DNA of 52,400 nt from a virus (Duplodnaviria > Caudoviricetes), in IMG/VR virus record IMGVR_UViG_3300019360_000102, positions 1-52,400 of that record; one strand, given 5' to 3'. The first letter of the stretch is position 1, and the number at the start of each line of letters is the position of its first letter. Of this stretch, positions 2,205 to 49,013 are shown piece by piece. Made by a program: the position numbers and the translations under genes. The notes beneath the pieces were generated by a model that made no database searches, had not been told where the DNA came from, and saw only the letters and a program-made list of their open reading frames with translations.

Positions 2205-3572
2205 TCAACTGATTGGGGATACGGTGTCGGTACCGGCCGTGTCGTCCGAAGCCCAGACATTGTCGGTTGATGGAACGTAGCACAGCGCCTTTGGCGATGA
2301 GAATCCGGTCACATTAGCCACAATGCTGCCGGTCAGTGGATTTACCAGCTGAACTTGGGAGCCGTTCGACGGGCTGACGTAGATTCGATTCGTGGTCGGG
2401 CAATAGGCCGTGCCCTCTATGGCCGTAGAACCCATCGTGATCGTGGCAGCCAAAGCATGCGTCACTGGGTTATAGACTATCAAGCCAGTACCACCAGAAG
2501 GCCCTCCGCAATATAGGCGATTGTTGATCGGACAGTAAGTCATACGACCTTCCACGTTTGCCCCCAAGCCGCTAGAAGTCGTGACGACCGTATTGGTAGT
2601 CGGATCAATCTCCCTTAAGACCGATCCGCCACTAGCGTAAATGATCCGATCCGTAGTCGGGCAATAAATGATGTCATTAGAGACGGACGTGGCCGAAATG
2701 GTGGTCAAGACCGTATCGGTGGCCGGGTTAATGACTGAAACCGAGTTAGCGCCCTGATTGGCCACGTACAATCGGTCGTTGGACGGGCAGTAGCATATAC
2801 CACGAGGAGTGGAGCCAACCGTGATCGAACCCACCAAGGTGTTGGTATTGGGGTTAATGACGCGCACCACGGTGGCGCCCTCGGCGGTGTGGTAGATCCG
2901 GTCGTTGGACGGAGAGTAACAGATTGAGCGTGGATTGAGACTGGTGGCCAGAGTGGTCACAACCGCGCCCGTATCCGGCCGGACAACCGTGATGGAGTTT
3001 CCGGAGCGATTGGCGATGTAGATTCGATCCGAACTTGGTGCCCAGGCGATAGCGCGCGGGTCATTGCCAACGTTAGTGGTGGAACCCCGGACGGGCGTAC
3101 GGACCGTCAGGGGAAACGTGAAGGAACGGACCAGATTGGTATTGCCGAGAACCCGAAGGTAGTAGGTGGTACTGAACGCCAAGGTCAAGTTTGGCATCAT
3201 GGTCACGTCCCCAGAAACTAAGCGATCATCGTGAATGATTGTGTTGAACGCAGAATCAGTGGCGATCTGAAATCGGTAACGAAAAGAGCCATTGTCGCTA
3301 ACCCTGGCTGGCTGCCGTGGAGTCATCGGCGTGGGCTGCACGTTGTCGTCGAAGTAAATGTAATCACTGGCCACCGGGGTCCCGTTGGCCCGGTGGGTGG
3401 CCGTAAAAGGCGTCATCACGGTTGATGAGTAACCGTCGACGACGGAGAGTCCGTCCCCGCCGCCCGCATACAGCTCGATGAAGTTGTCATTCACTTTGTC
3501 GAACGCCGCCCGCATGGTGTCTCCAGTATTGTCATTAGTCCGGGCGCCCGTGTTGATGGTCTGCTGGCTCAT
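2205..3572 (-). CDS. Receptor-binding-like protein: gp9/10-like N-terminus plus YVTN/YncE-type beta-propeller
   Basis: NDNTGD..VNDNFIELY N-terminus; ~41-aa repeats of the type PRGICYCPSNDRLYVANQGANSVSVINP. Confidence 0.8.
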   Translation of the reverse strand: MSQQTINTGARTNDNTGDTMRAAFDKVNDNFIELYAGGGDGLSVVDGYSSTVMTPFTATHRANGTPVASDYIYFDDNVQPTPMTPRQPARVSDNGSFRYRFQIATDSAFNTIIHDDRLVSGDVTMMPNLTLAFSTTYYLRVLGNTNLVRSFTFPLTVRTPVRGSTTNVGNDPRAIAWAPSSDRIYIANRSGNSITVVRPDTGAVVTTLATSLNPRSICYSPSNDRIYHTAEGATVVRVINPNTNTLVGSITVGSTPRGICYCPSNDRLYVANQGANSVSVINPATDTVLTTISATSVSNDIIYCPTTDRIIYASGGSVLREIDPTTNTVVTTSSGLGANVEGRMTYCPINNRLYCGGPSGGTGLIVYNPVTHALAATITMGSTAIEGTAYCPTTNRIYVSPSNGSQVQLVNPLTGSIVANVTGFSSPKALCYVPSTDNVWASDDTAGTDTVSPIS

Positions 3573-4963
3573 TGGTACACCTGCATGGTATTGCTAGTAG
3601 CGCACGCCACCCACATGCGATCCACATTGGGCACATACGGGCTAACGCGAGGACCAGTAGCCGCGCCAGTCGATATAGTCGTAACGGTGGCAAGCGTAAC
3701 AGGATCAATCACCCGGACCTGATTATTTGTACCGTCCGACACCCATATCTGGTTCGTAGTGGGCATCCAGCAAATAAAATTGATGGCCGCCAGGGTTGTG
3801 AGCGTGTTGGTGACTACGTTGGTTGCGGGGTCGATGATGCTAATTGTGCCAGCAACGTTATTGGCCACCCATACACGATCCGTCGGCGGGTGATAGCAAC
3901 AGTAAACCGGTGTGTCGCCGACCGTGACGGTGGCGACGACCGTGTTGGTGTTAGGGTTGATCACCGAGACGTTGTCCGATGTCTGGTTGGTCACGAAAAG
4001 ACGATCACTCGTAGGGCAATAGGCCGATTGATTAAGTCGAGGTCCGGTGCCCACCGTGATGGTGGTGACTACGGATGCCGTGGCGGGATTGATCACCGAC
4101 ACGGTAGTTCCCGCTCCGGCGGCTCCGTTGTTGGCCACATAGACTCTATCCACGGACGGCACATAGCAACATCCCACCGGCGTGGAGCCTACCGTGATGT
4201 TGTCGACCAGGGTATTGGTCGATTGAGCAATGGTGCGAACGTTACTCGAACCTTGACAGGGGAAGAAGATCTTGTCGACCGTCGGGGCATAACAAGGGTC
4301 GTTGGGCGTAGTCGTTACACCTGTGACGGTAACGGCAATCGTGTTCGTGGCCGGGTTGACGATCTGTACCGTATTGGCGGTCTGATTGGCGCAGTAGACG
4401 TGTTGGTTTGTGGGGACATATACGCCTGGGCGAACACCAGAATTGAAGCCCGTGATGGTGGTCTGCAGAGCAGGTGTCCTGACCGTAAGGGGGAATCTGA
4501 ATTGCCGCATGTAAGATCCTCGCCCCACTATGCGCAAGTAGTACACGGTGTCATAATCAAATTTAGCTCTGGTGATCAAGCGTGCTGGCGTGCCGACTCG
4601 ATAATCCACCAATATCTTGGTGAAGCCAGAGTCTTCGGCTACCTGCAAGACTTGACCGTATGTATCGGTCACGTCCGTGAAGTGAAATCCACGCCGAAAG
4701 GTCTGGTTGGTTGGCTGGGTCACCGTGGCGTAAACAAAATCACTGTAGATCGGCGAGCCATCTAGGTAACCAACGGCAGTCGGGAACGTGCCGATGGATG
4801 CCGGGGTAATGGGCCAGCCAAATATAAGCGATGACGCCTGCCCGGTGCCTGTCTCCAGGTACAATTCCGAAAAGTTGGAGTTGACCTTAGTGAAGGCCGT
4901 GCGGACGGTGTCACCCGTACCGTCGTTGGCGACCGTGCCAATGTTGATGTGTTGACGGCTCAT
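3569..4963 (-). CDS. Receptor-binding-like protein: gp9/10-like N-terminus plus YVTN-type beta-propeller
   Basis: NDGTGDTVR..VNSNFSELY; seven blades such as YVPSVDRVYVANN..VSVINPAT. Confidence 0.8.
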   Translation of the reverse strand: MSRQHINIGTVANDGTGDTVRTAFTKVNSNFSELYLETGTGQASSLIFGWPITPASIGTFPTAVGYLDGSPIYSDFVYATVTQPTNQTFRRGFHFTDVTDTYGQVLQVAEDSGFTKILVDYRVGTPARLITRAKFDYDTVYYLRIVGRGSYMRQFRFPLTVRTPALQTTITGFNSGVRPGVYVPTNQHVYCANQTANTVQIVNPATNTIAVTVTGVTTTPNDPCYAPTVDKIFFPCQGSSNVRTIAQSTNTLVDNITVGSTPVGCCYVPSVDRVYVANNGAAGAGTTVSVINPATASVVTTITVGTGPRLNQSAYCPTSDRLFVTNQTSDNVSVINPNTNTVVATVTVGDTPVYCCYHPPTDRVWVANNVAGTISIIDPATNVVTNTLTTLAAINFICWMPTTNQIWVSDGTNNQVRVIDPVTLATVTTISTGAATGPRVSPYVPNVDRMWVACATSNTMQVYQ

Positions 4964-6321
4964 TGCAATACACTGACCGCGTTACCTGAAGACTTCGAGA
5001 CATACATTCGGCCGTTCGTTGGAGAAAATATAGCATACGCCGGCCCAGATCCAATGGTGACGGTCGCGACGCTGGTGTCGGTGACAGGGTTAATGGAGGC
5101 CACCTGTCCGGACGTATTATTGCAAATGTAGACGCGATTAGTTGTTGGGAAGAACGCGCACGCGAAGGCGCCACTCATGCTGCCGATGGTTGTGCTTACC
5201 GTGTTGGTGGCCGAATCGATGACGGATACGTTACTGGTACCATTATTGGCTACGTAGAGCCTATTGTTTGTCGGGCAGAAGCAGATGCCAAACGGGGTGG
5301 TGCCCACCGTGATGGTGGTGACCACATAATCGCCCAAGGGGTCAATCGCCGAAACAGAGGCGCTGCCACTATTGGTGCAGTACAGCAGACCATTGGACTG
5401 GCAGAACCACATATCGCGAGGGCTGGAGCCGACCACGATTGACCGAAGCAAGGTGTTTGATGACGGGTCGATGACGGCGACGCGGCCGTTGGTGGTGGTC
5501 GAGACATAGATGCGATTATTCAGCGGGCTGAACACCGGCGAGATCGGCCCCGTACTGGCACCCGTGGAAATTGTCGTCGTAACCGCATTAGTCCCGGGGT
5601 TGATGACCGCTACATTGTTGGGTGTCGTCTGGGCGACATAGATCCTGTCATTGGACGGGCAGTAGACGGCACTGTTGGGGGCCGATATGCTGGTGGTGAT
5701 AGTTGCAACAACCGTATTGGTATTCGGGTTGATGACCGAGATCGAGTTGCCGCCAAAGTTACACTGGTAGATCCGGTCGTTGGACGGAGAGTAACAGCCG
5801 CCGCGAGGATTGGACCCAACCGCGATACTGGTATCCTCAACGGGACTGCGGGTGACCGTGTTGAACTGAAACTGTCTAATGTTCTGATTTGAGCCGTTGA
5901 TACGGGCATAATAGGGCGTGCCGGCCGCATGGTTCCAGGCGGCAAAGATGCGACTGTACGCGGCATTGCCATCGGCCGTCAGAGTGGTGAAAATTCCTGA
6001 AGTAGCGACCTGCACACGGTAACCCACCCGGACCACCACGGACTCATCGATACTGAAGATTTGCCGGGGTGTCTGGATGGTGGGGGTGGTTCCGTCAAAG
6101 TATACGAAATCGCTGGCCACCACGGTACCGTTCAGGTACGCCGCGGCAGGGAAGCCTGTCATGTAGGCCGCCGGGTAGTTGAACCCAAATTCCAGAGGGT
6201 TTGCGATTGTCGCGCTGTCGTACAGTTCGTCGAACATCAAGTTGGTAAACGTGAACGAATCACGGAAGGGATCTCCCGTGACGTCATTCAGCGCCGCCCC
6301 GACATATATGGTCCTTTGCAT
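4960..6321 (-). CDS. Receptor-binding-like protein: gp9/10-like N-terminus plus YVTN-type beta-propeller
   Basis: NDVTGDPFR..NLMFDELY; blades such as FCPTNNRLYVANNGTSNVSVID. Confidence 0.8.
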   Translation of the reverse strand: MQRTIYVGAALNDVTGDPFRDSFTFTNLMFDELYDSATIANPLEFGFNYPAAYMTGFPAAAYLNGTVVASDFVYFDGTTPTIQTPRQIFSIDESVVVRVGYRVQVATSGIFTTLTADGNAAYSRIFAAWNHAAGTPYYARINGSNQNIRQFQFNTVTRSPVEDTSIAVGSNPRGGCYSPSNDRIYQCNFGGNSISVINPNTNTVVATITTSISAPNSAVYCPSNDRIYVAQTTPNNVAVINPGTNAVTTTISTGASTGPISPVFSPLNNRIYVSTTTNGRVAVIDPSSNTLLRSIVVGSSPRDMWFCQSNGLLYCTNSGSASVSAIDPLGDYVVTTITVGTTPFGICFCPTNNRLYVANNGTSNVSVIDSATNTVSTTIGSMSGAFACAFFPTTNRVYICNNTSGQVASINPVTDTSVATVTIGSGPAYAIFSPTNGRMYVSKSSGNAVSVLQ

Positions 6322-7214
6322 TACACGTACTGTCCGCCTGTGGCCGTAGTGCCGGCGGCATTTCCAGGAAAGAAGTTTGCTCCGCCACCGGCGGTCTGGA
6401 TCACGGAGTTCTCGCTGACAACATATCGAGTGCCGGTAGCCGCCCCGGAGAACGTCGATCCCGTGGCGTTTATGACACCCAAGTTGGTTGCACGAGCAAA
6501 GGCCGCCGAGAAGGCAGGAGTACCGGAGACCGTGACGGTGTGACTTATCCGCAGGGCCCCCGTGCTGGTGACATGGAAGTGTGTGGTAGCCCCGCCCGAA
6601 ACCGTGTAGTTCGATAGCGATACGGCGCTGCCCCCAAGATCTAGCTCGATCTGGTTAGTCAAGCCGCTCGCAAAAATCAGGTTACCATATTCCAGTCCGG
6701 CCTTATTCGACACCTGTATGCCCGGCTTAGCGTTAGCGGTCGATTGGATCTGCAGCGCAGTAAGCCGCCACCTGGCATGGCTGGGAGCCAGCTGTTGGAA
6801 CATGGCCGCGATGGCAGTAGAACTGGTAAAGATGACGCTGGCCGGCGTGCCAGTATTACCCTGGATCGAAACCGTCCCGCCGCCCACCACGGGGTACAAG
6901 ACAACCGGGGTGGTGAGCGTGTAGGTGCCGTTGGCGATCGAGATAGTGACCGTGACGCCCTCAGCGACCGTGAGCCCGCGACTGATGACGCTGACGGCTT
7001 TCTGGAGAGTCAAGAACGCGACCCCTGGACTAAGCCCGGTGTTGGAATCATTGCCGGCAGGGTCCACGTAGTAGGTACGATTGGTAGTTAGCAGCTCGCG
7101 GTAGCTGGCGTACAATTCGGTGAAATTAGCATTGATCTTGGTCGCAGCTGTACGGGGTGCGTCCCCCGTGCCGTCATTTGCGACTGTTCCTATGTTGATT
7201 GTCTGCTGGGCCAT
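6321..7214 (-). CDS. Tailspike-like protein: gp9/10-like N-terminus plus beta-helix-like domain
   Basis: NDGTGDAPR..INANFTELY, then TYYVDPAGNDSNTGLS..AFLTLQKAV..ANGTY, a typical beta-helix cap motif. Confidence 0.7.
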   Translation of the reverse strand: MAQQTINIGTVANDGTGDAPRTAATKINANFTELYASYRELLTTNRTYYVDPAGNDSNTGLSPGVAFLTLQKAVSVISRGLTVAEGVTVTISIANGTYTLTTPVVLYPVVGGGTVSIQGNTGTPASVIFTSSTAIAAMFQQLAPSHARWRLTALQIQSTANAKPGIQVSNKAGLEYGNLIFASGLTNQIELDLGGSAVSLSNYTVSGGATTHFHVTSTGALRISHTVTVSGTPAFSAAFARATNLGVINATGSTFSGAATGTRYVVSENSVIQTAGGGANFFPGNAAGTTATGGQYV

Positions 7215-30534: not shown

Positions 30535-30858
30535 CTACACGATGCGACTTTTGGCCGTGAAGTGCTTGTCCTGGTATTCGACGGCCCCCGGCTCGTCGAC
30601 CCTGACCACAATACCCTTTCGGCGCGTTACGCCGTATCCATCGTCGTAAGACCATAGGGCCAGCCTAGTCTTGACGGGGCCGACATCCGTGAAGGCGGTG
30701 CATTCGTGCAAACCGTCTTCAACATCCGATAATTCCACTCCGGCACGAACCAGATTACAATCACCCATCTGCCGTTTGAGCAGGCCGTGGAAGTAGACGA
30801 AGGGCCATGAGAAGCCCTGCCCGGCTGACTCGGTGTAGAGTTTAATCAGTTTTGACAT
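30535..30858 (-). CDS. Hypothetical protein
   Basis: 107-aa ORF with short overlap onto the RNAP gene. Confidence 0.55.
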   Translation of the reverse strand: MSKLIKLYTESAGQGFSWPFVYFHGLLKRQMGDCNLVRAGVELSDVEDGLHECTAFTDVGPVKTRLALWSYDDGYGVTRRKGIVVRVDEPGAVEYQDKHFTAKSRIV

Positions 30859-32803
30859 TTTTCTTGGGTGGCGCCATCAGCAGATGTGGAGGCATTGCCT
30901 CCTGTCCGGCCAGGATCGCCCTGAACTGCTTTTCGGTAAGGCCCAGCAACTTCCGAATGGCCGTCTCGGCCGCGGGGTTGGGAACCTTGAACGGAAGATG
31001 AATGGCGCCCCACCGGTTATTACCGGTCATGGCGTCATCGAATAGACCACCCTTCACAGACTCGAGAGTCTCAGGATTAACCAATTCTCCGTTCTTCACT
31101 TCGATCGGGTCTACTGCATCCAGATCCTTATCGGTCCAGAATGATAAACGTTGCACCCCATCGGGAAGCTTGCGAGCATGGAATCCTGCCCCATTGAGCA
31201 AGGCTTGAAATTTATTGAAGGCGAACGGCACGCCGGGATTCTTGGGCTCGTGGCCGGAACGTAGAGCTCGCCAGTACTCGTCGTTACGCTGTCCACGAAG
31301 CGTGGCGGCATCGCGCAGCACCCCGTAGGCGCCGGCCGACAAGAGCGAATGACTTTCAAGTCCCGAGAGACGCTTGGACTGGGCCAGCTGGGAGCCGCCC
31401 TTGGTTGGTTGCTCGTTTGCATCGTAACTTCCTTGTCCCCTGATACTTATCTTTGAAGATGACGTGTGATGCAGCTTCAGGACATGACCGACGCCGACCG
31501 TGATCGGATTCTCTAACTTGCGGTTCTCCTGCGGGTCGAAGACTTCTTCGGTCTCGGACAGACCATGCTTGTCCAGCTCGCCTTTGACGAAGTCATGCCA
31601 TTTGTCCCCGTTCATGTTAAAACCTGGCAGCCTATAGGGGGCGCCGGCCTTGTGGGCCGCCTTGCCGAGCAGCAGCTCATACAAGAGCGAGTTGTTCACG
31701 CGACTGGGAAGGCCCAGCGGATTGAGCAGCATGTCAAGGGAGCCTCCGTCTGTGGTGCGGGGCATGTGGTCGTCCGGGATGATGAGGCTGACCACGCCCT
31801 TCGTTCCACTACGTAAGACGAGCTTGTCACCGACCTTGGTGGGCTGCTGAACTTTGACGTTAACCCTGACGCCCTTGGCGAGCTTCTTCACGTCCGTTAC
31901 GATCCCATCCTCTTCCTCGTCCCAAGTGGTCGAGGCGTCGGCGCGGGCGTTCTTCATGTGGCTAGATAGCTTACCCAGTTGAGCCTGCTGACTGGAGATG
32001 ATCTTCGGACGGGTGGCTAGTATGAGGGGGTGACCGTGCTTGACCGTTTGCCCAGCCTTTACGACGCCGTCATCGTCGAGGGTGTCGAGTTGCTCCTTCG
32101 TGAATTTGTTTGGGAAGACGCCGATGTGGTGACCCTTGCCACCCGTGACGCCCCGCTTGTATTCGGCGTCGAATCCGTACATGGCCTCCTGAGATAGTCG
32201 CTTAGCAAAAGCTTGGCTGATCACCACGGAGTCATCCATCGACCATCCTTTATAGGGGACCAAGCCAATACGGGCGTTAGCTCCCATCGCCAAAGTGCCC
32301 TTATCATCCGTGAAGTTGCTGACCGATATGGGCTGGTCTTTACGCACCATGTCGCCGGCCTTAACGATGGCACGACTGGTTAGACCAGTCTTCCGGTTCA
32401 TCGGGAAGTTGTCGTACAGGCCGACCCGGCGGCGCTTGCCATCCTGGTACTCCAGCTCAATATGCTTGTCAGTCACCCGGTGTACCCGGGCATCTTGATC
32501 GGCACGGAGGGCACCCATGTGCTGACCATAGTAATCGTCAAATGACCGCCCGTCTGGGTCCTGATCGATGGCGTTCTGGACCAGGGGTGCCTCGCGGTTC
32601 ACGATCGGCATAGCCTGGTTGATGAACCTGGCGCCGTAAAAGAGCCGCGGCCCGGCAACCGCGTTCTGTAGGGGGATCATGTTGACATGACTCCCAAAGA
32701 ACTTGGACGGGCTATCTAGCTCGTAGTCAATCTCGTGGGGGTCTTGTACCTCCTCGATCTTACTGTTGCGGATAACCGCGCGTTTAGGCACAGGGCTCTG
32801 CAT
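30842..32803 (-). CDS. RNA polymerase beta C-terminal half fused to beta' N-terminal segment
   Basis: RpoB-like MIPLQN..NQAMP, GTLAMGAN, GWSMDDSVVIS, GDKLVLRSGTKGVV, LNPLGLPSRVN, LKLHH, QPTKGG; then RpoC-like EVKNGELVNPETLESVKGGLF..RWGAIHL. Confidence 0.93.
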   Translation of the reverse strand: MQSPVPKRAVIRNSKIEEVQDPHEIDYELDSPSKFFGSHVNMIPLQNAVAGPRLFYGARFINQAMPIVNREAPLVQNAIDQDPDGRSFDDYYGQHMGALRADQDARVHRVTDKHIELEYQDGKRRRVGLYDNFPMNRKTGLTSRAIVKAGDMVRKDQPISVSNFTDDKGTLAMGANARIGLVPYKGWSMDDSVVISQAFAKRLSQEAMYGFDAEYKRGVTGGKGHHIGVFPNKFTKEQLDTLDDDGVVKAGQTVKHGHPLILATRPKIISSQQAQLGKLSSHMKNARADASTTWDEEEDGIVTDVKKLAKGVRVNVKVQQPTKVGDKLVLRSGTKGVVSLIIPDDHMPRTTDGGSLDMLLNPLGLPSRVNNSLLYELLLGKAAHKAGAPYRLPGFNMNGDKWHDFVKGELDKHGLSETEEVFDPQENRKLENPITVGVGHVLKLHHTSSSKISIRGQGSYDANEQPTKGGSQLAQSKRLSGLESHSLLSAGAYGVLRDAATLRGQRNDEYWRALRSGHEPKNPGVPFAFNKFQALLNGAGFHARKLPDGVQRLSFWTDKDLDAVDPIEVKNGELVNPETLESVKGGLFDDAMTGNNRWGAIHLPFKVPNPAAETAIRKLLGLTEKQFRAILAGQEAMPPHLLMAPPKKNVKTD

Positions 32804-32809
32804 CCCCAT

Positions 32810-39278: not shown

Positions 39279-39794
39279 CTATTGCGCCTTAACCAGGCGG
39301 TCCGTGAACAAGATACCATCAAGATGGTCAACCTCGTGTTGTATAACCCGGGCGATCATACCAGTGAAGACAGCCTCGTACGGCGCGCCGGAACGGGCGA
39401 GCCATTTCACCTTTATACTAAGGGGGCGATCAACTTCCCCGGTGATACCGGGTTGGCTGAGGCAGCCCTCCATCATCCTGGAGGTCGGCGAGTCCACCGC
39501 GGTGATCTCGGGGTTGATCAAGACCATTGGCAGCCAGTCATTTAGGTCGTCAACCTCACGGCCTTCCATTTCCATCTTGGAGGAACGCCTCGAATTGCGT
39601 GGATCAATCACCGCAATACGGGTGGCGACGGCAACCTGATTTGCAGCCAAGCCGATACCTCGTGCCTCGTACATGGTTTCGAGCATGCTATCGATGAGAT
39701 TCTGCACTTCAGGCGTATGTGGATCCGCGACGGGCGTCGCACGTTGACGAAGTACAGGGGCCCCCTTGAGCACAATCGGAAGGAAGTTTGGCAT
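39279..39794 (-). CDS. def: Peptide deformylase
   Basis: All three signature motifs: GIGLAANQV, EGCLS, QHEVDHLDG. Confidence 0.97.
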   Translation of the reverse strand: MPNFLPIVLKGAPVLRQRATPVADPHTPEVQNLIDSMLETMYEARGIGLAANQVAVATRIAVIDPRNSRRSSKMEMEGREVDDLNDWLPMVLINPEITAVDSPTSRMMEGCLSQPGITGEVDRPLSIKVKWLARSGAPYEAVFTGMIARVIQHEVDHLDGILFTDRLVKAQ

Positions 39795-41894: not shown

Positions 41895-42290
41895 CTACTT
41901 CACGATCTGCTTCAAACAGAACGCAACCTGGTGTTCAGCCAATCCGTAGAACTTGCCTAGCTCGTAGATGTCGGTGAAACAGGGAATGCCGCGCTCCTTG
42001 GCCCGACTAAATTCTTCACGGGTGCCGGAGCTGCGTTCCCAATCTGGAGTCAAGAAAACCGCGTCACAGACATGCAACATAGACAGATCGCCATTAAGCC
42101 AGACTTGATCAGGAAGGGAGTCCTGAAAATGAGCAGTATTGGCGTGAGGACATACCGCGGCCAGCCCGGGATATGCGATTGCGAGCGACCAGACCTGAAG
42201 GGCGGCACGTTCGGCATTACGCACGTTTTCCGCAACCGCAAAGTGTGATTTGCCCCGAAAGGGGCCGGCAATATAGACGAGACCGTTCAT
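41895..42290 (-). CDS. DUF4406/nucleoside 2-deoxyribosyltransferase-like protein
   Basis: VYIAGPFRG, CPH, CDAVFLTPDWERSSGTREE; start moved to MNGLVY. Confidence 0.75.
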   Translation of the reverse strand: MNGLVYIAGPFRGKSHFAVAENVRNAERAALQVWSLAIAYPGLAAVCPHANTAHFQDSLPDQVWLNGDLSMLHVCDAVFLTPDWERSSGTREEFSRAKERGIPCFTDIYELGKFYGLAEHQVAFCLKQIVK

Positions 42291-42294
42291 GAGT

Positions 42295-42906
42295 CTATGG
42301 AGTTTCCTTCCGCCTGAAGTAACTGGGCGGAAGTACGTGAAATACCCAAGGTACCCCAAGGCTGTCGGATCCGCCCTTATCGCCTCGGTCGCCCTTATCG
42401 CCGCGGCCGTTACCTTGAGTACCCTTACCGCCGTTGCCATTCCGGTTGCCCTGATCCTTACCGTTACCTTCGCCCTTGGTGAGTTTGCCGGTAACGGTCT
42501 GTCCGTTGTTGAGCTGACTCATTACAGCCTGCAGCTGCTCATGCAACTCACGGCTGTACGGTAGCTTGAACAAGCGGGGCTCCGGGTGAGCGGCGTTATA
42601 GCCGAACGTATGCAGGAAAAGATTGTGGCGTGTGGGAGGATGTTCGATCAGGATGTAGATACCGCCGGGCGACCCGATAGAAGGGCTTGGCTCTTTAATC
42701 ACGATATGCCTAATCGTAATAACCGTGGGCATATTCTTGTGCGCTGCCCACCCCATAATGGAATCTAGCGACAAGGACATAGCGACGCAGAATCCGAAGA
42801 ACCCGGCGATGATGCCGGTCCGGACCCAAATGTGCTTGGTGTCTCGAATGACCCAGAATACAGCCGCGAACAGGAGCAGCAAGAAAATAGGGAACGCAAT
42901 CAGCAT
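42295..42906 (-). CDS. Membrane protein, third gene of the MotA/TolQ-type module
   Basis: Two N-terminal TM helices, EPRLFKLPYSRELHEQL, Gly/Asn/Lys-rich tail. Confidence 0.65.
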   Translation of the reverse strand: MLIAFPIFLLLLFAAVFWVIRDTKHIWVRTGIIAGFFGFCVAMSLSLDSIMGWAAHKNMPTVITIRHIVIKEPSPSIGSPGGIYILIEHPPTRHNLFLHTFGYNAAHPEPRLFKLPYSRELHEQLQAVMSQLNNGQTVTGKLTKGEGNGKDQGNRNGNGGKGTQGNGRGDKGDRGDKGGSDSLGVPWVFHVLPPSYFRRKETP

Positions 42907-42909
42907 AGA

Positions 42910-43521
42910 TCAATATGGTGATTCGCCATCCTGGTGCTGGCCGTCATTGAGGATACGGGCAGGCAGCCGATTGATGTCGGCGATGGTGACGTGGTTGTTC
43001 TGATTGGCGAGCGTAAACCGAAAGAAAGTAATTTCTTCTCCAGTGCGAGTGAACTCGTGTTCCTCGGATGCCGGCATCGCGTAGGGTTTGATCTTGATGA
43101 GCCTTACCTTGGCCTTCAGCGGAGTGGGCGTCTTGTTCATATTGTACGAATGCACGTTGACGACGAACTCCCCGGGGACGAAGCCACGCACCGTTGCGAT
43201 CTCCTCGTTGACCGGATTGACCACCTTACCTTCGGCGTTGACCTCGGTACGTCGGGCGCCAAGGCAATCGCGGTTAAGGCTGCAGAGACTTCCGTCGCCA
43301 CCTTCGCGGCTGGAGAAGCCGATGCGACGACCCTGGGGATCTTGAATCCACAGGTCCAGATCTGCATCGCCCTCCCAGGTCAACACGATCTCGTAGATCG
43401 CGTTCGGCTTGTAGGCTGATTCCGTCGGGGTGGTGTGACGGATCAGGCTGGCGATCACCACGAATACCATCAAGAAGCAGAACAGCGCGTCCAGGTAGGA
43501 CGTTGCGTATTTATTGTTCAT
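42910..43521 (-). CDS. MotB/ExbD-like TM anchor plus YfaP/DUF2135-like domain
   Basis: YLDALFCFLMVFVV (Asp at TM start); LTWEGDADLDLWIQDPQG; NEEI..GEFVVNVHSY. Confidence 0.65.
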   Translation of the reverse strand: MNNKYATSYLDALFCFLMVFVVIASLIRHTTPTESAYKPNAIYEIVLTWEGDADLDLWIQDPQGRRIGFSSREGGDGSLCSLNRDCLGARRTEVNAEGKVVNPVNEEIATVRGFVPGEFVVNVHSYNMNKTPTPLKAKVRLIKIKPYAMPASEEHEFTRTGEEITFFRFTLANQNNHVTIADINRLPARILNDGQHQDGESPY

Positions 43522-44002
43522 GGTTGGTGTGCAACAGAATATGGCGTTGCAGTGTAAGCGGAATAGCTGCGCTCATGCCAACCACGGTCGTGTAAAGTGC
43601 GGTACAGCAACCGGAGTACAGCTGCTTCACGATCATGCTCACGTCGGGCGCGCTTGTTTGCGTACCGAGGGCCTTGTCCATCATGATGCAGAATCCGATC
43701 AGGGTGCCGAGCAAGCCTAGACCCATAAAGGTCTGCGCCGCGTACTCGATGTGCTCCATACGCTGTGCGAGCCAGTCAAAACGACCGGATCTACAAGCTT
43801 CGCGGAAGCCCCGGCGATCAAACTGACGGGCAACCCAGAGCAGGTAAACTGACACCGGGAGATAGGTCGCCATGATGGTCACGCAGATGTATGACGCATC
43901 ATTCTTGATGATCTTTGTGAAAAGCCCCTGGGTGCCGGCAAGAACACATGCGGTCATCACGACAGCCCAGACGATGAAGCACTTTAGGAAGTTAGATTTC
44001 AT
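43511..44002 (-). CDS. MotA/TolQ/ExbB proton-channel family protein
   Basis: FMGLGLLGTLIGF and TALYTTVVG motifs; four hydrophobic segments. Confidence 0.85.
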   Translation of the reverse strand: MKSNFLKCFIVWAVVMTACVLAGTQGLFTKIIKNDASYICVTIMATYLPVSVYLLWVARQFDRRGFREACRSGRFDWLAQRMEHIEYAAQTFMGLGLLGTLIGFCIMMDKALGTQTSAPDVSMIVKQLYSGCCTALYTTVVGMSAAIPLTLQRHILLHTNHEQ

Positions 44003-44055
44003 TTCAATATAAGAGGTCTCACACAGAAGCGCCACTGTCAAACCCCGGCCTGCAG

Positions 44056-44760
44056 TTAGTCGGGTATGCCCAGTGTCTTACCGTGAAGGTCCTCGGGACT
44101 TAGCCAGCGATAGACGCCCTTCTTCCTGTCCTTGAAGCGTTGGTATATCTTCCCGTCCGAGCCGATCTTGGTGCCCCAGGCCGCACGGGTGTCGACGCCG
44201 GCCCTAGAAGATTCTGGTCCAGAGATCACGTCGATGAACCCAAAGCTACTCGGATGAAGTGCTTGTGCTTCTTGCGATATAGACTCCTCGCTGGGTAGCC
44301 CGCCAGGCCCCATTTGGGTGATCCGGCGGGACTGCTCTACCAAGTGCATCGGGTTGATTTCTTCGAGCGGACTTGAAAGTGGGTTACCGATCAGCAACCC
44401 GGTGGCATAACCGTCGAAGTGGCTTGGCTGAAGAGCTTTGAGATTACGCATCCGCGAAAGTCGCCTCATGGCATTTAGTCGCAACTTGCCGGCGTCCAGA
44501 TCGACACGCTCAGCCATGAGCTTATCGGGACCCAAAATGGTGCGGTACATGAGTGCGTCCCGCTCGTCCGGGTCGGCCTCGCCGCGGTTGACCGCGATAA
44601 GCTTGCGGGTTGCATGCAGGATGGTGTCAATATCTACGGATACATCCGTAGGGTCATGCGCCAACTGCTTCATCGGCTTCGGGAGGGCCGATGACTGTTT
44701 CACCGCGGGTTCCTCTTTGAGGCCGAGGGCCGTGATGAGCTTCTGTCGAAGCTTGTCCAT
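44056..44760 (-). CDS. RNA polymerase beta middle fragment (fork/rifampicin region)
   Basis: DERDAL.YR and NPLSSPLEEINP..SRRITQMGPGGL..HPSSFGFID..PES..GV align to RpoB DDIDHL and SQLSQFMDQNNP..KRRISALGPGGL..HPTHYG. Confidence 0.92.
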   Translation of the reverse strand: MDKLRQKLITALGLKEEPAVKQSSALPKPMKQLAHDPTDVSVDIDTILHATRKLIAVNRGEADPDERDALMYRTILGPDKLMAERVDLDAGKLRLNAMRRLSRMRNLKALQPSHFDGYATGLLIGNPLSSPLEEINPMHLVEQSRRITQMGPGGLPSEESISQEAQALHPSSFGFIDVISGPESSRAGVDTRAAWGTKIGSDGKIYQRFKDRKKGVYRWLSPEDLHGKTLGIPD

Positions 44761-45296
44761 TACAGCGCGGTAGAAGGTCCGCGTGCTGCATTCATCCGCG
44801 CCTGGTTACCCCAGGATTCCCAAAATCCTCCCGGATAATTCCACCATCTTGGAAATTGTCGCTTGAAGTCCTCATAACCTTTACCAGAGTGCCGCTGTAT
44901 CGATTTAGACCAAGCCCCGCGGGCGTCGAAGGGATTGATGTCACGGCCCAATTGGCCAATACTTCGGCCAGCGCCCTGCCAGTTACCCTGGATTACATTG
45001 CCTAGTGCGTCAACGGCAGATCCGGCGGCACCGGTAATACCGCTCTCGCGGCCAGTCCCTTTACCGCCAGCGCTGACGAGACCTAGCAGGGGAGAGAGCA
45101 CAGTACGCGCAGCCCCGCCGAGTGTGCCGCCAACTGCTCCCATGAATGAAGGTTTGACGCCGGGGGAGAACTGCCGCTCGCCAGTCAAGTAATGCGTTAT
45201 GCCCGCCGGCTGCTGGGCTGCTGGCCTAATGGCCGGCACGCCCATGTCGGGGACGTTGATTACGTTGGCCAGCTTGAGCATCTGAGAACTGCGCAT
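44760..45296 (-). CDS. Gly-rich protein with K-x-A motif
   Basis: MRSSQMLKLAN; TAATG coupling to the beta-middle gene. Confidence 0.6.
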   Translation of the reverse strand: MRSSQMLKLANVINVPDMGVPAIRPAAQQPAGITHYLTGERQFSPGVKPSFMGAVGGTLGGAARTVLSPLLGLVSAGGKGTGRESGITGAAGSAVDALGNVIQGNWQGAGRSIGQLGRDINPFDARGAWSKSIQRHSGKGYEDFKRQFPRWWNYPGGFWESWGNQARMNAARGPSTAL

Positions 45297-45302
45297 GTCA
45301 AG

Positions 45303-45331
45303 AGTTTAACTCAGCCGTTTATGAGTTTCCA
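45303..45331 (-). promoter_or_regulatory. sigma70-like promoter, predicted leaderless
   Basis: TGGAAA-N17-TAAACT-N6-ATG(45296). Confidence 0.6.
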
Positions 45332-45807
45332 GCGGAATTCTCACGCACGTTTTGTAGTGCATGTACCTTTCTTGCACGATACAAGACAGGCTTCCTGCCG
45401 ACATGTACCTTTCTTGCATGATACAAGACAGGTTTTCTGCTGAATCGCCTGGTATCCACTAGGTACTGCAGCCACGTAGAAAGCCTAAGATACGGTCGCC
45501 AGAACCAATACGGTCTGCGGGTCATACAGGCGACATTATTCATGCCGAGCAGGTTGAAGTGATAAGCGCGTGTCGCCTGGTGCCCACCCGTACAGTCGGG
45601 GAAGCAGCCAAATACCAGCATGCCGCGTATGCCACACCAGGAGTCCGATGTGGTCAGGCCGGCCGCAAACAAGACGGTCCGAGATGCTTCGGAGTCGGGG
45701 TACATGCGGTTAGACCGATAAAGGTAGATCGCCTTGCTAGAGGCGTTGACCCACCGCGTAGACACGAAGAACCTAATGCGTAGCAATGATTTGAGATACT
45801 CGATCAT
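45319..45807 (-). CDS. Hypothetical protein
   Basis: Fills the gap in the operon; contains an in-frame 14-aa duplication. Confidence 0.4.
   Translation of the reverse strand: MIEYLKSLLRIRFFVSTRWVNASSKAIYLYRSNRMYPDSEASRTVLFAAGLTTSDSWCGIRGMLVFGCFPDCTGGHQATRAYHFNLLGMNNVACMTRRPYWFWRPYLRLSTWLQYLVDTRRFSRKPVLYHARKVHVGRKPVLYRARKVHALQNVRENSAGNS
45360..45440. repeat. 42-bp tandem duplication (about 2 copies)
   Basis: CATGTACCTTTCTTGCA(C/T)GATACAAGACAGG at 45360 and 45402; encodes RKPVLY(H/R)ARKVH twice. Confidence 0.9.
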
Positions 45808-47254: not shown

Positions 47255-48910
47255 TCAGCGAGAGCCAGGTTCAGGCTGGTAGGCTCGGGTGAGGTCCATG
47301 TCGGGGAGCCGCTTCCGGAAATCGTGAATGTCGATTCGGTATATTGACTGCAATCCTCGCCACCCTGGTTGGTAGTTGGATTCGTAGAGGTCACGGGCGC
47401 ATTCCTTTGTTGGGCAGCCAAGGATGATCTTGTGCTCGTCGAAACGGCCGGTCGTAGGGTCGACCTGGTTTACGATCCAGACATTGTCCGTATGAAGATC
47501 AGGTCCGATGAACACGTCCAGGTGATCCCCGTCGGCGCCTTCGGTCTTTTTCAAATAGCCGTAATGGGCCTTCATCTTGATCGCCCACTTGACGCCTTGG
47601 CGGTCCACGCCTCGGCGCCATGATCCCTTGGGGTTCTCGATGGCGATGTCCAGGCCGTGTAGACGTACATGCCCCTTCCGATAATTTCCAGAATGCTGCT
47701 GCGGCTTGGTCGGTAGCTTCTGACGGTTTTTCTCAGAAGTGGCTGCGCGATGGGCAGCTAGGTCGAGTTCCTTCTTGGTCCGTACGGCCGCGGCCATCTT
47801 GCCGAAGCTGCCCGATAACGCGGTCGATACCCCGGGGTTGATGCCGGGCATCTCGCTATGGATGACCGCACGAATGTCGTCGGCCAGCTGCTCCAAGGAT
47901 TCGTTGATGTCGATGCCGGCGTCGAACTGCTGGTTGAGGAACAGCGCGATAGCGATCAGGTCCTCTTTGGAGAGATCCTGGCCAGCCTGGTCGGCCGCGC
48001 TGCCCGGCGGGGGTCCCAGGTCGGGCGTGTCTTGGAAGGCGGTGTCAGGGGCAGGTCCTTGGGCGGTACCACCGAACTGTTCGCTGGCGCCCGCTAGGCT
48101 GCCGGCCTGAAACGCGCTGGCCATCTTCCTGTGGGACAATAGATCCGGCATGGTCTTCTGGACCGTACTCAGATGCAGGTATGTATCCTTCAGGGCAGTC
48201 CTGATGGATTCCTGTTTCTGAGTGTGTGAGGCACCGGGATCAGGCTTGCGTACGAGACGTTGATATGCCTTGTCGAACACGCGGCGGTCGTAGCCATCCT
48301 GGTTGGCCTTCAGGATCTCGGACCCCCAGAGTTGCTCCAGCTCCTTCTCGTCGACGCCCAGGTCCTTCATGAGGCTATGCAGTCGCAAGCTGGCCTGTCC
48401 GATGTCCATCTTGAACAACCCGGTCTCCGGCTCCAAGCGAATCCGAAAGCTGTGGCCAGCACCTCGCTTGGTATTAAAATGAGTCTCCAGTTCGCCAGAG
48501 TCTTTCCGGCGCGTGTAGGCGCCGGGCAGTAGGCGGGCCTGGTGGATGGTAGCGTATTCATTTCCGCCGTGAATGAATGTTCCGCGGTTGGTCAGATATG
48601 GAACTTTGGCGACTGTTTGATGTTGTTCATCCAGAAGATTTCCTGTCTTATCATCAAACAGGCGAAAAGTCCCACGGAGCTTGCGATGCAAATAGTCTCC
48701 CTTTAGGAGCGCCTCTTTCTGCTCGTCGATGGTGAACGGCTCTTCGCTATCATATTTAAGATCATGCAGTTCGAGACGAACTCCACCATAGGATTGGGGG
48801 AACTGCCGCAATACGGCTTCATGCATCCCTTTGAAGATGTTGCCGCGAAGCGTGTCATGATCCTCCCAGTCACGCAGCTCGGCCCCATGTGGGTAGATGT
48901 CATCAGCCAT
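47255..48910 (-). CDS. RNA polymerase beta N-terminal fragment fused to an inorganic pyrophosphatase-like (InPase) domain
   Basis: RpoB-like KVPYLTNRGTFIHGGNEY..HQARLLPG; C-terminal GNYRKGH..IENPKGS..HYGY..DGDHLDVFIG..DEHKIILG. Confidence 0.88.
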   Translation of the reverse strand: MADDIYPHGAELRDWEDHDTLRGNIFKGMHEAVLRQFPQSYGGVRLELHDLKYDSEEPFTIDEQKEALLKGDYLHRKLRGTFRLFDDKTGNLLDEQHQTVAKVPYLTNRGTFIHGGNEYATIHQARLLPGAYTRRKDSGELETHFNTKRGAGHSFRIRLEPETGLFKMDIGQASLRLHSLMKDLGVDEKELEQLWGSEILKANQDGYDRRVFDKAYQRLVRKPDPGASHTQKQESIRTALKDTYLHLSTVQKTMPDLLSHRKMASAFQAGSLAGASEQFGGTAQGPAPDTAFQDTPDLGPPPGSAADQAGQDLSKEDLIAIALFLNQQFDAGIDINESLEQLADDIRAVIHSEMPGINPGVSTALSGSFGKMAAAVRTKKELDLAAHRAATSEKNRQKLPTKPQQHSGNYRKGHVRLHGLDIAIENPKGSWRRGVDRQGVKWAIKMKAHYGYLKKTEGADGDHLDVFIGPDLHTDNVWIVNQVDPTTGRFDEHKIILGCPTKECARDLYESNYQPGWRGLQSIYRIDIHDFRKRLPDMDLTRAYQPEPGSR

Positions 48911-48916
48911 GCCGTA

Positions 48917-48946
48917 AGGGTAGCACCTACTTGGTTTGCAGGTCAA
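48917..48946 (-). promoter_or_regulatory. Extended -10 promoter, predicted leaderless
   Basis: TTGACC-N18(..TGC)-TACCCT-N6-ATG(48910). Confidence 0.7.
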
Positions 48947-49013
48947 TATGCAGTCGCTCATCAGACACGGCCAGATGGGCGACCAACACGGCGAGTTTCT
49001 CGTCAGGGCGGGG

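Follow-up and report, generated by a model that had tools for sequence, protein, structure and literature searches.

A phage-borne three-gene membrane cassette with a MotA/TolQ/ExbB-family subunit and its relatives in bacterial chromosomes

Introduction

What is a set of three genes resembling the parts of a bacterial ion-driven motor doing in a phage? We address this question for a cassette, here called A-B-C, in a 52,400-nucleotide stretch of DNA (the window) that corresponds to positions 1 to 52,400 of the linear virus record IMGVR_UViG_3300019360_000102 (Duplodnaviria; Caudoviricetes), which has an estimated completeness of about 49%. Motors of five channel subunits and two partner subunits (5:2) drive flagella, gliding and Ton-dependent uptake, maintain the envelope (Tol-Pal) and serve in Zorya defence, and with each further member that was characterised a new output came to light. 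A first-pass annotation, made from the letters of the window only, had described the three genes as a phage-borne ion motor for superinfection exclusion, envelope remodelling or interference with the ZorAB or Ton systems of the host. The DNA is indeed that of a virus record. The first-pass annotation missed that phages did not invent the cassette but copied it from bacterial chromosomes, where it is widespread and uncharacterised. With this bacterial origin the question shifts to the role of the bacterial system and to the reason why phages carry the cassette. The best explanation we can offer, with a probability of about 0.6, is that the phage carries a trimmed copy of a bacterial cassette whose products most likely form a motor of the MotA/ExbB-ExbD class, driven by protons and directed to the periplasm.

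Results

The three genes and protein A

The three open reading frames (ORFs) were found where the first-pass annotation had placed them, all on the minus strand:

43511..44041 (TTG start) or 43511..44002 (ATG start), minus strand: gene A, minimal channel subunit of the MotA/TolQ/ExbB family (Pfam PF01618)
42910..43521, minus strand: gene B, 203 amino acids (aa), N-terminal helix with an Asp as in ExbD, TolR and MotB, followed by a predicted TerD-like beta-sandwich (AlphaFold2 model)
42295..42906, minus strand: gene C, 203 aa, two predicted transmembrane helices, a small conserved external domain, a linker and a C-terminal motif (hydropathy and alignments)
43691..43717, minus strand: channel-helix motif GLLGTLIGF of protein A, residues 96-104 in the numbering of the ATG form (conservation in 27 homologues)

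Genes A and B overlap by 11 nucleotides, and 3 nucleotides separate the end of B from the start of C. Inside the A-B-C block no promoter-like or terminator-like site scored above chance.

Protein A was matched by the Pfam model MotA_ExbB (PF01618) with 33.7 bits against a gathering cut-off of 22.9, in agreement with its initial assignment to the MotA/TolQ/ExbB family, and its homologues at other loci scored 23-44 bits with this model. The match spans residues 91-173 of the 176-aa form that starts at the TTG at 44041; from the ATG at 44002 the protein has 163 aa, and the sequence favours neither start. Four transmembrane helices are predicted in A by hydropathy and charge; the fourth scored below the threshold of the script and was placed from the alignment of homologues. 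The cytoplasmic loop between helices 2 and 3 is short and rich in K/R. Alignment of the 27 homologues showed little or no variation in GLLGTxIGF and in YTT..G further on (G96, G99, G103 and F104 invariant, T139 and G142 nearly so), and an invariant Asp in the first external loop. We take the helices that carry the conserved motifs to be the counterparts of the pore helices of ExbB, TolQ and MotA.

More specific models did not place A in one of the known systems. The scores with NCBIfam models were far under the respective cut-offs, with 21 bits against 700 for ZorA2, 12.5 against 221 for TolQ, 12.7 against 135 for ExbB2 and 13.8 against 373 for MotP, and the PADLOC models for ZorA gave weak matches to the transmembrane core only (22.6 bits, E 1e-5). 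The phage A subunits are 141-176 aa long. They do not have the cytoplasmic insert of 60-90 aa and the C-terminal tail that are found in most bacterial A proteins, and a few bacterial A proteins are likewise without them.

Protein B carries an invariant Asp and a TerD-like domain

The following features were located in gene B:

43489..43491, minus strand: codon of Asp11 in the transmembrane helix (conserved in the family)
42970..43395, minus strand: predicted TerD-like beta-sandwich, residues 43-184, with the invariant acidic cluster D54, D56, D85 and E107 (model and alignments)

Protein B has one hydrophobic helix (residues 9-27), and this contains Asp11, just as had been noticed for a single-helix partner with a characteristic Asp. 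The residue was invariant in 109 of 109 diverse members of the B family. Among 36 homologues derived from the loci described below it was present in 35, and the remaining row is gapped at this position. The complete invariant set of the 109 diverse members is Asp11, W49, D54, D56, D85, G88 and E107, and in the locus homologues D54, D56, D85, E107, R112, N122, E163 and T165 were invariant in 36 of 36.

An AlphaFold2 model of B, built with 21 homologues, had a mean predicted local distance difference test score (pLDDT) of 83.6. It consists of a helix (residues 3-30), a short linker of low confidence and a beta-sandwich (residues 43-184), so that only the sandwich and a short disordered tail follow the helix. 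The sandwich matched the structure of TerD (3ibz) in Foldseek with an E-value of 3.3e-5, and viral predicted structures annotated as TerD-like also matched it. According to the model the external domain of B thus has a TerD-like fold, which had escaped the first-pass annotation. With its invariant acidic cluster, the modelled TerD-like head is a candidate metal-binding element.

The fold was not recognised by sequence profiles. The window B had no Pfam match at E<=1 and no match to an NCBIfam or PADLOC family, and the TerD profile was not among the seven Pfam families that matched any of the 109 members at E<=0.01. Families touching the B family weakly at this threshold included PPC (5 members), ExbD (2), DUF2135 (2) and MotB_plug (2), with a best E-value of 0.001 for ExbD. 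When the B profile was run against solved structures, the best E-value was an insignificant 0.085. Among 1.84 billion representative sequences, 1677 proteins matched the profile at E<=1e-3, of which 1007 reached E<=1e-10, and almost all of the best 150 matches listed were about 170-280 aa long.

Two further statements had been made on this domain. The absence of an OmpA-like domain holds, as neither the window B nor any of the 109 members matched an OmpA-family Pfam model. The label 'YfaP-like' is weakly supported: two of the 109 members matched DUF2135 (best E 0.0021) and an ESM Atlas lead for B with the DUF2135/YfaP label scored 0.85, while the window B itself did not match DUF2135.

A scan of genome contigs with a narrow B alignment gave only partial domain matches, in large proteins of Planctomycetota and Myxococcota, none of which has the motor helix. 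These large proteins are a different architecture that shares the beta-sandwich of B. The motif typical of the sandwich (W.GDADLDL...) was seen at the end of large secreted-type Planctomycetota proteins (L019 128-4756 and L025 1644-2687), one of which has vWA and TPR domains.

Protein C and its relation to B

Two parts of gene C could be set apart in the alignments:

42367..42471, minus strand: low-complexity linker rich in G/K/D/E/N, residues about 146-180 (alignment; pLDDT below 50 for residues 146-185)
42307..42366, minus strand: conserved C-terminal motif SDSL..PWVFHVLPPSYF..K (homologue alignments)

As proposed earlier, the third protein has two transmembrane helices, which hydropathy places at residues 2-20 and 32-50 with a K/R-rich connecting loop. 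Because the helices are joined by a positively charged loop, the rest of C is expected to lie outside the cytoplasm. No Pfam match above noise was obtained for C. Alignments of 13 close and 37 wider homologues showed a GW(A/P) after helix 2, an E-P...G-I-Y hairpin and a P-R-x-(F/Y)-x-L-P-Y-S segment as conserved features. At the C terminus F189, L192, P193, P194, S195 and K200 were invariant in the 13 close homologues, and the pattern F..LP...LP.K, with K200 near-invariant, was kept in the 37 homologues including bacterial ones. The linker, which adds about 40 aa, is specific to the phage clade of the window, and bacterial C homologues do not have it.

The order of a motor subunit A, a motor subunit B and an anchored third protein resembles that of tolQRA and exbBD-tonB. 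One could therefore consider the cassette as a Ton-type uptake helper, an analogue of ExbB-ExbD-TonB carried as an auxiliary metabolic set that energises outer-membrane transporters, for instance for iron. A virome paper (PMC13065750) counts exbB/exbD among the iron-related auxiliary genes of viruses. However, the NCBIfam scores of A for ExbB and TolQ are 12-13 bits where 135-221 are required, B has a predicted TerD-like fold and not the periplasmic domain of ExbD (the weak Pfam ExbD matches being limited to 2 of the 109 members), no TonB-like feature was detected in C, and none of the 14 larger bacterial loci that were annotated has a gene for a TonB-dependent receptor beside the cassette. 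We consider a Ton-type role quite unlikely.

The cassette is conserved as a unit in phages and bacteria

The first-pass annotation had suggested a survey of gene neighbourhoods in phages and bacteria. In all of 36 homologous loci (9 from phages and 27 from bacteria) A, B and C lie on one strand and in the same order, a regularity far above what chance would give. The A profile was made from 19 Pfam-confirmed seeds and was run over all ORFs of the 36 loci. Because the C profile went through four iterations on those same ORFs, the counts obtained with it are to some degree circular; all of its E-values but one (2e-8) were 1e-27 or better. The ORF picked upstream of B matched MotA_ExbB (E<=1e-4) in 20 of 27 homologous loci. 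Six of the seven non-matches were due to a wrong choice of ORF and one (L006) to divergence.

Among 50,697 records of cultured phages B was found by tblastn with three B queries in 27-29, which are only phages of Rhizobium and Sinorhizobium. The carriers belong to unrelated groups, namely Pootjesviridae of about 154 kb, phages of 68 kb and 171 kb, and temperate siphoviruses similar to phage 16-3. Neither blastn with the cassette region nor tblastn with A alone or C alone gave a match among the phages; only B finds phage relatives because A and C are too divergent.

B homologues also occur in many bacterial chromosomes. Of 401 sampled genomes of one proteobacterial class, that of a Beijerinckia metagenome-assembled genome (MAG), 55 had a full-length homologue in a profile search, with E-values from 1e-79 to 1e-12. 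In the sample of the phylum, 14 of 401 genomes had B at E<=1e-8, two of these being partial matches inside very long ORFs. The NCBI labels on B homologues include MAGs of both Alpha- and Gammaproteobacteria, and one bacterial B query returned 3801 homologues at E<=1e-10. Of the 120 bacterial homologues listed, all are named 'hypothetical protein' except three that the Joint Genome Institute names 'YfaP (DUF2135 family)', and none of the 120 has a precomputed Pfam domain. There is no curated Pfam or NCBIfam family model for B or C. Two deep types of the cassette (see below) coexist in some genomes, and the chromids of Azospirillum hold two copies.

The bacterial neighbourhoods were studied in 14 loci with wider flanks, in which 148 ORFs were annotated. 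The neighbours of the cassette were relA/spoT, rpoZ, folK, a NYN-domain gene, ctaA, a PAPS reductase gene, cytochrome oxidase genes and ABC transporters, and no prophage gene was found beside a cassette among these ORFs. Bacterial cassettes occur in very small genomes too. A short A (173-187 aa) is also encoded on two short MAG contigs, whose neighbouring genes mark them as bacterial.

These distributions bear on the role in superinfection exclusion or counter-defence that the first-pass annotation had proposed, in which the motor would block the entry of other phages or disturb ZorAB, Ton or Tol of the host. Cargo genes often sit near attachment sites, and the cassette of the temperate rhizobiophage RHph_TM3_3_14B is found immediately past its annotated attL. 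The weak ZorA matches to the transmembrane core of A also speak for such a role, and the occurrence of the cassette in phages that are unrelated but infect one host group fits a function directed at the host envelope. The bacterial homologues are, however, found in housekeeping neighbourhoods, including those of very small genomes, and not in defence islands. In addition, PADLOC gave no match for B or C, A (163-176 aa) is without a ZorA-like tail, and large phages of strictly lytic type carry the cassette as well. Taken together we regard this role as improbable, if somewhat less so than Ton-type uptake.

Several side observations were made at the phage loci. A gene for a Seg-like homing endonuclease is inserted between A and B in RHph_TM3_3_14B (L064 1725-2483), and in the 16-3-like phages both junctions, A/B and B/C, hold small additional ORFs of 61-96 aa. 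A gene for a trypsin-like peptidase (Trypsin_2) adjoins or lies near the cassettes of rhizobiophages (L064 593-1303, L065 569-1291, L003 1247-2146 and L002 5585-6277). It was dropped as a component of the cassette, having no homologue in the window.

Phages have acquired the cassette more than once

A maximum-likelihood tree of 36 B proteins separated two deep bacterial types, and the phage proteins formed three well-supported clades. The window B groups with two IMG/VR contigs (support 100/99), the B proteins of lytic rhizobiophages form one clade (100/98), and the clade of the 16-3-like temperate phages (100/100) is nested in bacterial type 2 (97/93). A single phage clade was rejected, as this constraint costs 39 log-likelihood units with p 0.00058 in the approximately unbiased test, which was run after the tree had been seen. 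The tree implies at least two entries of the cassette into phages. In quick trees, A and C gave the clades of the B tree, which indicates that the cassette moves as a unit.

Surroundings of the cassette in the window

The two neighbours of the cassette lie outside the module:

44056..44760, minus strand: upstream neighbour, fragment of a split RNA polymerase beta subunit (Pfam RNA_pol_Rpb2_3, 33 bits, cut-off 21)
41895..42440, minus strand: downstream neighbour, similar to nucleoside 2-deoxyribosyltransferases (phrog_355, E 1.9e-22; matches to DUF7768 and DUF4406)

The upstream gene had been recognised as an RNA polymerase beta gene in the first-pass annotation, and its match to RNA_pol_Rpb2_3 agrees with this. 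The downstream ORF as listed overlaps C, and its true start is probably internal. Nearly every gene of the window is on the minus strand, and the content includes tail and baseplate genes, a peptide deformylase (39279-39794; phrog_2890, E 2e-34), a metallophosphoesterase and a NUDIX hydrolase.

A lysin-domain protein is encoded 4 kb away from the cassette (47255-48961). Together with three consecutive genes for small membrane proteins, of which one spans in the direction of the outer membrane, this could point to a lysis or egress module in which the proteins act as a holin or spanin set. Against it stand the significant MotA_ExbB homology of A, and the invariant Asp and acidic cluster of B, for which models of holins or spanins have no role. 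In view of the homologous cassettes in bacterial chromosomes, where the context is not that of a phage, the holin/spanin idea was rejected, and we hold a lysis role to be very unlikely indeed, the least probable of the alternatives.

The beta subunit of a multisubunit RNA polymerase is present in the window as two pieces, at 44056-44760 and 30842-32809, with about 11 kb between them. Identity of the larger one to proteins of Vibrio phage D69, Salmonella phage Arash and Yersinia phage YerA41 is about 30%. The split subunit and the identity of about 30% point to a phage lineage that has its own multisubunit RNA polymerase and is without a close cultured relative. The neighbouring genes at 2205-3572, 3569-4963 and 6321-7214 have in common an N-terminal segment of phrog_677 (baseplate wedge or tail fibre connector), which suggests several alternative receptor-binding proteins on one adaptor. 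At about 45300-45450 a peptide stretch is repeated directly in ORF translations of both strands (HVPFLHDTRQ, for example, occurs twice). It suggests that about 40 nucleotides are repeated in tandem in the DNA, probably in a non-coding gap upstream of the gene at 44760-45296.

Discussion

A motor of the MotA/ExbB-ExbD class is indicated by the family membership of A, the invariant Asp of B and the strict co-inheritance of C. In this class an assembly of five A-type and two B-type subunits is established, and proton flow over the Asp drives relative rotation. By analogy, protein A would form a pentameric channel ring in the inner membrane around a dimer of B. The Asp helix of B would stand in the centre of the ring, with the TerD-like sandwich held just above the membrane, probably on the periplasmic side. 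Protein C would be anchored by its helical hairpin and would expose its small domain, flexible linker and C-terminal motif on the side of the B domain. It could then act as the output or anchor partner, as TonB does for ExbBD or TolA for TolQR, and by the same analogy C is the best candidate for a transducer or anchor. The topology assumed here for A, B and C is the one suggested by hydropathy and charge. Since phage A is almost without a cytoplasmic part and the conserved parts of B and C are external, the output is most likely in the envelope, as for Ton and Tol. During infection the phage cassette would probably maintain, or redirect, the corresponding envelope function of the host.

Several points weigh against this explanation. 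The N terminus of B has one K/R while three follow just after the helix, and with this balance the N-in orientation of B is not supported by the positive-inside rule alone. The AlphaFold2 model of C is poor (pLDDT 57.5) and matched only a generic helical hairpin in the fold search; moreover C has two transmembrane helices and no TonB or TolA features were detected in it. The 5:2 assembly and the binding of C are proposed by analogy. As the bacterial cassette is itself uncharacterised, the maintenance of a host function is put forward as a conjecture. When type-2 B was searched against PLSDB, no plasmid of Rhizobium or Sinorhizobium matched, and only Azospirillum chromids did. Finally, 12 of the 27 bacterial loci, but none of the phage loci, have a fourth gene after C, for a lipoprotein-like protein of about 231-264 aa.

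This fourth gene (e.g. L043 8167-8961, L044 8160-8951, L045 8752-9540 and 9 more loci) encodes a signal-like N terminus followed by a lipobox-type Cys. It is confined to one bacterial subclade, and one fused or over-extended ORF is weakly similar to DUF3108.

A bolder view, which we put forward only tentatively and hold to be less probable than the motor cassette described above, is that these genes represent an unrecognised class of periplasm-directed 5:2 motors that is widespread in Pseudomonadota, very small genomes included. Such motors would combine a metal-binding TerD-like head on B, where other motors have a domain for contact with peptidoglycan or TonB, with a dedicated two-helix C protein bearing a docking motif at its C terminus. 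Several unrelated phage lineages would have taken up the whole unit independently, since productive infection or the fitness of lysogens in these hosts would depend on running or hijacking the motor.

The three-gene family counts thousands of members and is without a curated model for B and C. It is conserved in the chromosomes of bacteria, and phages, which captured it repeatedly, carry small, trimmed versions (A of 141-176 aa). Tractable laboratory systems exist with Sinorhizobium meliloti phage 16-3, the RHph rhizobiophages and Azospirillum brasilense, which has two chromosomal copies. Simple deletions and an Asp point mutant in these systems could reveal the function of the whole family.

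Comparison with known systems

Targeted literature searches (phage ExbB/ExbD/MotA/TolQ, TerD, Rhizobium phage and DUF2135/YfaP) gave no description of this cassette. It resembles ExbB-ExbD-TonB and TolQ-TolR-TolA in that A is in the same Pfam family, the only transmembrane helix of B is likewise N-terminal and carries a conserved Asp, the gene right after B encodes a third protein with an anchor in the inner membrane, and the output is probably periplasmic. In contrast to these systems B has a predicted TerD-like beta-sandwich in place of the ExbD/TolR domain (no PF02472 match for the window B), C has two transmembrane helices and no TonB or TolA features were detected in it, and A has four predicted helices with, in the phage, almost no cytoplasmic domain.

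With MotAB and PomAB the cassette shares the four-helix layout and MotA_ExbB homology of A and the Asp-bearing helix of B. It differs from them by a B protein without an OmpA-like peptidoglycan-binding domain, in which MotB_plug is matched weakly in only 2 of the 109 members, and by an A protein without the large cytoplasmic torque-generating domain. The likeness to ZorAB of Zorya consists of the weak matches of the transmembrane core of A to ZorA models (22.6 bits in PADLOC and 21 bits in NCBIfam), whereas A is without the long ZorA tail, B is without a peptidoglycan-binding domain, partners of the ZorC, ZorD or ZorE type are absent and the bacterial context is one of housekeeping and not of defence. 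B shares a predicted fold with the TerD family, the calcium-binding beta-sandwich proteins of tellurite resistance, but is not matched at the sequence level by the Pfam TerD profile. Proteins of the TerD family are soluble and are not known to be fused to a motor-type transmembrane helix.

Two surveys of the superfamily (PMC12505986 and PMC12204202) describe, in the parts covered here, many non-flagellar relatives bearing DUF domains and new classes of force transducers. The same parts make no mention of an architecture with a TerD-like B and a C protein or of phage copies, and the supplements may hold relevant lists. Closest in kind are the generic ion transporters (GIT clade; mBio 2025, PMC12505986), which that source presents as non-flagellar MotAB relatives of unknown function that carry DUF domains on an Exb/Tol scaffold, and which on this description are the same kind of system as the A-B-C cassette.

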